DNA of 64,000 nucleotides from sequence record MW630116.1. One strand, written 5' to 3'. The notes under the pieces were generated by a model. It saw only the letters and a program-made list of their open reading frames with translations, searched no databases and was not told the origin of the DNA. The stretch is from Escherichia phage vB_EcoM-ZQ3. Positions 6,338-7,420 of this stretch are shown here, one piece after another; position 1 is the stretch's first letter; every line of letters begins with the position of its first letter. The position numbers were made by a program, and so were the translations under genes.

Positions 6338-6528
6338 TGGACCAAGCCAAAATCGATAAGTTAATCCATACGCTTGTAGCAGATATCAATACACGGGCTC
6401 TTCGTAAATCGCAGAATGGCGATTCTTGGACTATGCAAGATTGCAAGAAAGGTGCTGAACTAGGACGTGAAATTGCTAAAATTCTTGGTGGACAATTTGA
6501 ATTTGCTGAAGAGGTAGTAAAACTGTGA
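6337..6528 (+). CDS. hypothetical protein
   Basis: 63 aa ORF; start overlaps upstream stop (TAATG). Confidence 0.4.
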
Positions 6529-7420
6529 AAAAGATTATTTTGACTGTAGGTTGTCCTGGGTCTGGTAAAAGCACTTGGGCTCGTGAATTTATTGCTAAGA
6601 ATCCTGGGTTCTTTAATATCAACCGCGACGATTATCGCCAATCCATCATGGGTCACGAAGAACGTGACGAGTACAAATATACTAAAAAGAAAGTATCGTA
6701 ACTTATATGCAACACGATGCGGCACATATGATTCTCTGTCAAGACGGAACTAAGGGTGTTATTATTTCCGACACCAACTTAAATCCTGAACGTCGTCTTG
6801 TCTGGGAAGAATACGCTAAGGAGTGGGGCCATGAAGTTGTATATCAAGTGTTCGATGTTCCATGGACCGAATTGGTTAAACGTAATGCTAAGCGTGGCAC
6901 AAAGGCTGTTCCTATTGATGTTCTACGTTCGATGTATTCTCGTATGCAAGAATACAAAGGACTTCCGGTTTATAAAGGAACTCCCGGTAAACCTAAAGCG
7001 GTTATCTTCGACCTTGACGGGACTTTAGCTCTACATGTTGCTCGTGGGCCTTATGAGTTAGATAAACTATCCACTGACGCCCCGAACCCTATGGTTGTCG
7101 AATATGTTAAGATGCTTCATCAGGCAGGGTATACAATTATTACTGTAAGCGGTCGTGAATCAGGCACTAAAGAAGATTCAATGTGTTATTACGAAGCAAC
7201 TAAAAAATGGATGGACACGTTTTCTATTCCATGGGAAATGCATATTCAACGTAATCAAGGTGACACTCGTAAGGACGATGTTGTTAAGGAAGAACTCTTT
7301 TGGAACTGTATTGCTCCTTATTATGATGTGAAATTGGCCATTGATGACCGTAACCAGGTTGTGGAAATGTGGCGACGTATTGGTTTAGAATGTTGGCAAG
7401 TCGCATTCGGTGATTTTTAA
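6525..7420 (+). pseudogene. pseT: polynucleotide 5'-kinase/3'-phosphatase, frameshifted
   Basis: N-terminal 58 codons from GTG 6525 (P-loop [14 protein letters not shown]) end at TAA 6699-6701; the remaining 237 codons (phosphatase motif [10 protein letters not shown]-terminal [10 protein letters not shown]) are in the +2 frame (ORF 6707-7420); the frames overlap in the A-rich tract 6684-6694. Confidence 0.8.

Follow-up and report, generated by a model that had tools for sequence, protein, structure and literature searches.

Is the pseT gene of Escherichia phage vB_EcoM-ZQ3 (sequence record MW630116.1), which is read in the deposited sequence as two open reading frames (ORFs) instead of one, a gene that the phage has lost or a gene that the record has damaged? 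The window analysed here is a stretch of 64,000 nucleotides of that record, and the phage is, as judged from this sequence, a Mosigvirus of the RB69/JS09-like T-even type. The most likely reading, which we consider probable, is a genuine slipped-strand deletion that would abolish the 5'-kinase and, as a consequence, tRNA repair. The locus and the partner ligase gene are arranged as follows.

3447..4571, plus strand: rnlA (RNA ligase 1), intact, 374 amino acids, 99.2% identical over its full length to JS09 RnlA.

6337..6528, plus strand: homologue of RB69ORF230c, the upstream gene, the stop codon of which overlaps the pseT GTG (GTGA) and which houses the strong pseT Shine-Dalgarno sequence.

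6525..6701, plus strand: pseT 5' fragment, 58 codons from a GTG start; residues 1-56 of JS09 PseT are identical.

6549-6575, plus strand: P-loop, G9-T17, within the 58-codon ORF.

6699..6701, plus strand: premature TAA in frame 0, closing the 58-codon ORF.

6707..7420, plus strand: pseT 3' fragment, 237 codons from an internal ATG that corresponds to M63 of JS09 PseT.

7420..7611, plus strand: cd.4, the downstream gene, the ATG of which overlaps the pseT stop codon (TAATG).

Re-reading of the sequence agrees with the preliminary description in that a P-loop-encoding ORF of 58 codons extends from GTG 6525 to TAA 6699-6701, and the assignment of the rest of PseT, including its DxDGT motif, to the +2 frame with a first ATG at 6707 was confirmed by the ORFs, by Pfam and by identity to JS09. 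The first ORF ends in ...YKYTKKKVS, of which the last two codons (V and S) are out of frame, and it encodes, in addition to the P-loop (GCPGSGKS at 6549-6572), the counterparts of the T4 kinase residues K15, S16, D35 and R38. The second ORF is 100% identical to residues 63-299 of JS09 PseT and comprises the remaining kinase fold, with the equivalents of D85 and R126, followed by the whole DxDxT phosphatase domain (FDLDGT at 7007-7024, with DLDGT at 7010-7024). In Pfam, the 58-codon ORF matches AAA_33 (2.5e-10), while the 237-codon ORF matches HAD_PNKP (4.1e-57) and the C-terminal half of AAA_33; since AAA_33 is shared between the two, a single kinase domain has been severed midway, and the unambiguous homology on either side of the break indicates that the split is not a chance pattern of ORFs. 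The 58- and 237-residue products match exactly the proteins QWY13324.1 and QWY13325.1 of vB_EcoM-ZQ3 (accession MW630116; PMC9389114), encoded on the same 170,042-bp contig and each labelled 'polynucleotide 5'-kinase and 3'-phosphatase' in GenBank. The public annotation thus already shows the split, as two CDSs; a literature search found no paper discussing it.

The nature of the lesion is defined by the repeat at which the two frames overlap.

6684..6693, plus strand: residual repeat AA(AAAG)2, AAAAAGAAAG, which in relatives is AA(AAAG)3.

Relatives read ACT-AA(AAAG)3-TATCG, encoding T-K-K-K-E-S-I-V-T, where the window aligns as ACT-AA(AAAG)2-TATCG, exactly one AAAG unit short of JS09, pEK20, Shf125875 and F2. 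The exact position of the missing unit is ambiguous within 6686-6693, blastn placing the gap after 6689. JS09 is the best match to the pseT region (99.6%, with 1005 bases in JS09 to 1001 in the window), and pseT is annotated as a single 900-nt gene in each of JS09, pEK20 and Shf125875. Frame 0 of the window reads T-K-K-K-V-S-stop and the other frame, following TAA 6683-6685, reads K-E-S-I-V-T-Y-M, so that the overlap at 6684-6693 and both of its readings check out as originally described; relative to the first ORF, the second lies in the +2 (or -1) frame. The alignments with the four relatives also bear out the proposal that a frameshift within an A-rich tract, at a short repeat, has disrupted pseT. 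That proposal had allowed for a loss of either 1 or 4 nt: the 4-nt alternative stands, as one AAAG unit, and the 1-nt alternative does not. The comparison with pseT of T4 and relatives that had been recommended was run, and yielded a full-length T4 Pnkp-like orthologue and three repeat units in the relatives. The event itself would be a slipped-strand (Streisinger-type) loss of one AAAG from (AAAG)3 at pseT codons 54-57.

The two-unit allele was sought beyond these relatives. Matches to an 81-nt query spanning the junction were obtained in 174 phage records, at no more than 95.3% identity, the value expected for an otherwise identical 81-nt sequence with a 4-nt gap, and the extra 4 nt were present in each of 60 records sampled evenly down this ranking. 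The sampled relatives have one polynucleotide-kinase gene annotated at the locus, which is a single 900-nt CDS in the four records that were opened. A pattern specific for two units had zero matches in IMG/VR, metagenome contigs and representative genomes; a gapped pattern accepting any unit number recovered four further contigs (metagenomic or IMG/VR), all with three units, and because it yielded only these four, the three collections hardly enlarge the denominator. A contig search for the exact 237-residue product found it on no other contig. As far as can be told from their sequences, three units and a single ORF of 299-300 codons are retained throughout the about 178 related public sequences.

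Candidate lesions elsewhere in the family were considered and rejected. The 258-residue PseT of 308Ecol101PP, examined as a second natural lesion, reflects a start-codon call only, and its ORF is open for 300 codons from GTG; in that record (OR062945.1, locus L006 376-1275) the gene caller chose an internal ATG over the conserved GTG, which is an annotation artefact. Short members of the protein cluster of the 58-residue peptide, examined as frameshift alleles, are C-terminal pieces cut at contig ends.

The surroundings of the lesion bear on its age. Between positions 5837 and 7734 of the window (1.9 kb) the AAAG loss is the single difference from JS09, with zero substitutions, whereas over its entire length the window matches JS09 at only about 97.4%. 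Comparison with JS09 shows pseT to be free of secondary decay, and of the 79 JS09 CDSs compared with the window all but that of PseT have full-length products (78/79). The three units in the about 178 relatives, the 1.9 kb of identity to JS09 and the 78 intact products together place the lesion as very recent and found only here; on sequence grounds, the AAAG loss is private to the ZQ3 record. An event so recent is uninformative on selection, and the suggestion that a real loss would point to relaxed selection for tRNA repair in the hosts of this phage is not upheld, given an allele private among about 178 sequences, substitution-free flanks over 1.9 kb and the lack of secondary decay. Indeed, the uniformly intact pseT of the relatives, including an intact-pseT protein cluster of 282 members, points away from long-term relaxed selection.

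The same privacy and freshness are what would be expected had the phage kept (AAAG)3 and the record dropped a unit through a sequencing, assembly or consensus artefact, after which automatic annotation called two CDSs, and we regard this explanation as a tentative one that deserves to be taken seriously. It is favoured by the occurrence of the two-unit allele in a single record among about 178 relatives and in no other contig searched, by the indel being the sole difference from JS09 in 1.9 kb with perfectly identical flanks, and by the absence of the secondary mutations that would prove long non-function of pseT. The site is moreover a low-complexity purine (A/G) tract, with the typical look of a consensus error; split genes do occur in the records of this clade, as in the case of rnlB in JS09 (KF582788.2), and a published account of the sequencing of ZQ3 was not found in the literature search. 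Against an artefact, the AAAG loss is the only window-private frame-breaking indel in otherwise identical sequence when the window is compared with JS09, F2 and pEK20, no other having been detected across 64 kb among the 78 JS09 gene products; the remaining window-private indels are located in divergent mosaic patches (1754, 2329 and 11203-11850) or are 3-nt in-frame changes. The error would also have to be a clean deletion of a 4-nt unit and not a homopolymer miscount, and the one homopolymer of eight or more bases in the window is intergenic. The 78 intact products, the sole frame-breaking private indel and the single long homopolymer argue that the assembly is not prone to errors, and clean removal of one 4-nt repeat unit fits replication slippage, not a platform homopolymer error. 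We infer that the AAAG deletion is probably present in the phage itself, beyond the record.

The comparison across the window also brought several other features to light. The rnlB gene (32084-33082, plus strand) is intact, encoding 332 amino acids; its JS09 counterpart (locus L005 161-1160) is split by one extra A into JS09_0267 and JS09_0268 (KF582788.2). Positions 30-740 (plus strand) encode a 236-residue HNH-type homing endonuclease in nrdA, with an I-HmuI NUMOD-like domain (8e-8), and a separate ORF at 730-1719 (plus strand) encodes the C-terminal 329 amino acids of NrdA (JS09 residues 449-751); this 'genes-in-pieces' layout of the ribonucleotide reductase large subunit is found in F2 and is absent from JS09 and pEK20. 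The same distribution, present in F2 and not in JS09 or pEK20, applies to a 287-residue ORF between genes 5.1 and 5 (61072-61935, minus strand), the N-terminus of which (RYIYKS...RIYIGKH) looks like that of a GIY-YIG (Seg-like) homing endonuclease; it had no Pfam match at 1e-3. A 330-residue DAHP synthase (phospho-2-dehydro-3-deoxyheptonate aldolase) is encoded between the cd.2 region and cd (8517-9509, plus strand) and is an auxiliary metabolic gene common to JS09, F2 and pEK20. A mosaic patch at 11203-12199, covering gene 30.8 (11828-12199) and the region between rIII and 30.9, diverges sharply from all three of these phages; the 30.8 protein is just 57% identical, and several window-private indels cluster in the patch. 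Finally, the short tail fibre protein gp12 (49205-50788, minus strand) has 527 residues compared with 557 in JS09, at 92.6% identity, and the 1584-nt gene annotated in F2 and pEK20 equals the window gene in length.

A tandem tetranucleotide repeat at the site of the lesion, with a coding sequence that is perfect in both halves, also fits a gene that is split by design, the polypeptides of which reassemble, or a phase-variable AAAG contingency locus. The repeat is short for such a role (three units in relatives and two in the window), and neither unit-number polymorphism nor a four-unit allele was seen among the about 178 relatives, none of which shares the split layout. The break furthermore lies inside the kinase fold, in the acceptor-tunnel wall (residues 38-59), and the second ORF is devoid of a Shine-Dalgarno sequence. 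We find this explanation scarcely credible and return to the genuine slippage deletion, the consequences of which for the protein may be predicted from T4 Pnkp.

T4 Pnkp is composed of a kinase domain (residues 1-147) and a phosphatase domain (residues 148-301; PMC3592404), and the residues essential for its kinase are K15, S16, D35, R38, D85 and R126 (PMC2831316). In the window the equivalents of the first four lie in the 58-residue peptide and those of D85 and R126 in the second ORF; there is neither a single uninterrupted ORF of ~300 codons, TAA 6699 intervening after 58, nor a complete kinase domain on one polypeptide. As the catalytic residues are divided between two ORFs, the 5'-kinase is predicted to be lost or nearly lost. 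The break falls within the 22-residue segment 38-59, which forms one wall of the acceptor tunnel of T4 Pnkp (PMC2831316), and adjoins Glu57. Mutation of the latter in T4 Pnkp (E57A) decreases the catalytic efficiency 150-fold, and K54A is harmless, in a loop in which Lys54 is disordered.

The acylphosphatase domain of the C-terminus, with DxDxT, Asp165/Asp167 and its other residues, is retained in full, and the 237-residue product would carry all phosphatase residues together with about 94 residues of orphaned kinase fold. Structures of the isolated phosphatase (5UJ0) and kinase (1LY1) domains have been solved, the former suggesting that the phosphatase domain may be able to fold alone. A truncated form, Pnk(42-301), studied by Wang & Shuman in 2001, is reportedly phosphatase-active.

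Whether this second protein would be produced depends on translation signals that differ markedly between the two starts. The Shine-Dalgarno pairing of GTG 6525 is strong (-7.1 kcal/mol), whereas that of ATG 6707 (-0.6 kcal/mol) is weaker than those of all 76 real starts of the window (median -5.4) and weaker even than that of the median random ATG (-1.75 kcal/mol). Independent initiation at ATG 6707 was therefore rejected as the main route. With a near-absent Shine-Dalgarno sequence and TAA 5 nt upstream, the 237-residue product is possible only through termination-reinitiation. The phosphatase-only product by reinitiation envisaged in the preliminary description is less likely than was implied, in view of both the poor pairing and the ~94 orphaned kinase residues.

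According to the mechanism that we favour, ribosomes starting at the well signalled GTG 6525 would stop at TAA 6699 and release a 58-residue P-loop peptide. With the kinase residues divided, the 5'-kinase and the Pnkp/Rnl1 repair of tRNA cut by anticodon nuclease would be lost or nearly lost. Termination-reinitiation at ATG 6707 may supply a minor 237-residue protein, phosphatase only at best, and -1 slippage on A_AAG may add a minor trace of a near-wild-type protein of 298 residues. Which of these products are made, and the resulting phenotype, are predictions from the arrangement of the locus. Expression of cd.4 could fall by polarity upon early termination in pseT.

Besides the near-lack of a Shine-Dalgarno sequence at ATG 6707, two points absent from the preliminary description are that the downstream frame is the -1 frame and that the overlap contains an in-frame A_AAG.

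6683..6685, plus strand: stop codon (TAA) of the -1 frame, bounding on the 5' side the 13-nt zone (6686-6698) where a -1 shift could join the ORFs.

6686..6692, plus strand: A_AAG (in frame, 6686-6689) and the overlapping A_AAG_AAA, putative non-programmed tRNA-Lys -1 slip sites.

As the deletion removed 4 nt, a -1 shift would restore the frame. Simulated -1 slips gave open ORFs of 298 codons, the products of which differ from JS09 PseT only in having TKKESIVT (one Lys missing) or TKKKSIVT (the Glu57 equivalent missing) in place of TKKKESIVT. The allele might thus be leaky or self-correcting, tRNA-Lys slipping by -1 on A_AAG or A_AAG_AAA to yield a biologically meaningful amount of the 298-residue PseT. 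In addition to the frame relationship and the in-frame A_AAG within zone 6686-6698, this proposal is favoured by A_AAG being, of all tetramers in E. coli, the one most prone to shift (PMC4066793, PMC5009743), by the suppression at 1-10% of mutants with a one-bp deletion, which belong to the same frame class, in E. coli (PMC10861913), and by the peak slip sites of lambda CI, which are A_AAA_AAG and A_AAG_AAA (PMC10861913). The Lys-deleted product would, moreover, lose its residue from the loop that is disordered at Lys54 and tolerant of K54A. Several features count against it. The canonical heptamer is out of register, reading U_AAA_AAG beside the in-frame A_AAG and the non-canonical A_AAG_AAA; the slip zone is a mere 13 nt; and folding of 6660-6780 revealed no stimulatory RNA structure downstream (z = 0.43), the centroid being unpaired near the slip site, and no GGAG-like upstream element is visible in 6660-6683. 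Tetramers lacking a stimulator frameshift at near-background levels (0.147% versus 0.112%; PMC4066793). The restored protein would be one residue short at or beside Glu57, where E57A is so damaging, and the two-frame layout is conserved in 0 of about 178 relatives. A meaningful leak is consequently considered very unlikely, and -1 slippage at pseT is probably a trace leak and not a mechanism.

A conditional form of this leak can be conceived, in which PrrC-type depletion of tRNA-Lys raises slippage at the Lys-Lys-Lys tract and switches PseT repair back on, a connection that follows from PrrC-type nucleases depleting exactly this tRNA. When the next Lys codon, AAA (6690-6692), is 'hungry', the P-site tRNA-Lys paired with AAG (6687-6689) could slip by -1 to AAA (6686-6688), which would bring GAA (Glu) into the A site and produce the 298-residue PseT minus one Lys; the mechanism of P-site slippage at hungry codons is summarized in PMC10861913. 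We put this forward as a highly improbable scenario.

If the deletion is genuine, as we consider probable, its phenotype may be anticipated from T4. Mutants of T4 lacking the kinase (pnk-) grow normally on laboratory strains and meet restriction only on prr+ hosts, in which Stp-activated PrrC cuts tRNA-Lys, and loss of PNK slows the decay of RegB-cut mRNAs (PMC3014915). ZQ3 is accordingly expected, by analogy, to be normal on laboratory strains and restricted on prr+ hosts, with RegB-cut mRNA decay slightly affected. On ordinary laboratory E. coli the allele would have been neutral while the phage was isolated and propagated, and it may persist because pnk- phages grow normally there. The partner ligase of the Pnkp-Rnl1 pathway is present, rnlA having been found intact as originally described.

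A real deletion would make ZQ3 a natural kinase-null pseT phage, which should fail on hosts with PrrC-like anticodon nucleases directed at tRNA-Lys, a property of relevance to biocontrol and therapy, and a ready-made RB69-like tool for probing tRNA-targeting defences. Should the record be at fault, MW630116 would need correction and QWY13324.1 and QWY13325.1 would have to be merged. The site is also a small, naturally occurring setting in which to examine non-programmed -1 slippage at A_AAG; the split of pseT otherwise has little importance beyond curation.

Sequence comparison assigns the locus by descent to the T4 Pnkp/PseT family. JS09 PseT (AIA80186.1) matches T4 Pnkp (PDB 1LTQ) over residues 1-299 with E = 4.8e-151; T4 PseT/Pnkp and its Mosigvirus orthologues have in common the P-loop, the equivalents of D35, R38, D85 and R126 and the DxDxT motif, and their pseT neighbourhoods are alike (rnlA-alc-pseT.3-pseT.2-pseT.1 ... 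pseT-cd.4). In contrast to T4 Pnkp, the window ORF is interrupted at codons 54-57, which leaves no polypeptide with a complete kinase. The classical T4 pseT/pnk mutants, namely the pseT deletion and pseT1, are likewise loss-of-function alleles of pseT; pseT1 lacks the phosphatase only, whereas the lesion of ZQ3 hits the kinase side, and the ZQ3 allele differs from these mutants in occurring in a deposited natural isolate and in having arisen through repeat-unit loss. In the slipped-strand frameshifts of Streisinger, described first for the lysozyme and rII genes of T4, replication likewise adds or removes exactly one unit of a short tandem repeat; in contrast, the tetranucleotide of the ZQ3 lesion, with only three copies in relatives, has been seen to change once and is no demonstrated hotspot.

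With respect to recoding, the -1 direction and the placement of tRNA-Lys on AAG after A apply both at the A_AAA_AAG site of E. coli dnaX and at the ZQ3 site, and the A_AAG_AAA arrangement of ZQ3 matches one of the FS8 slip sites of lambda CI (PMC10861913). Unlike dnaX, ZQ3 has neither a downstream hairpin nor an upstream Shine-Dalgarno-like stimulator, its canonical heptamer is out of register and its layout is not conserved, with no sign of selection. The pseT gene of ZQ3 qualifies neither as a programmed frameshift site nor as a phase-variable locus. The split of rnlB (RNA ligase 2) in JS09 (KF582788.2) is likewise a small indel confined to a single record that leaves an RNA-repair gene as two CDSs, but it is a 1-nt difference beside a short A run, unlike the AAAG loss of ZQ3. 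Set against these systems, pseT of ZQ3 represents no new kind of biology, both the gene and the mechanism behind its frameshift allele being textbook cases.
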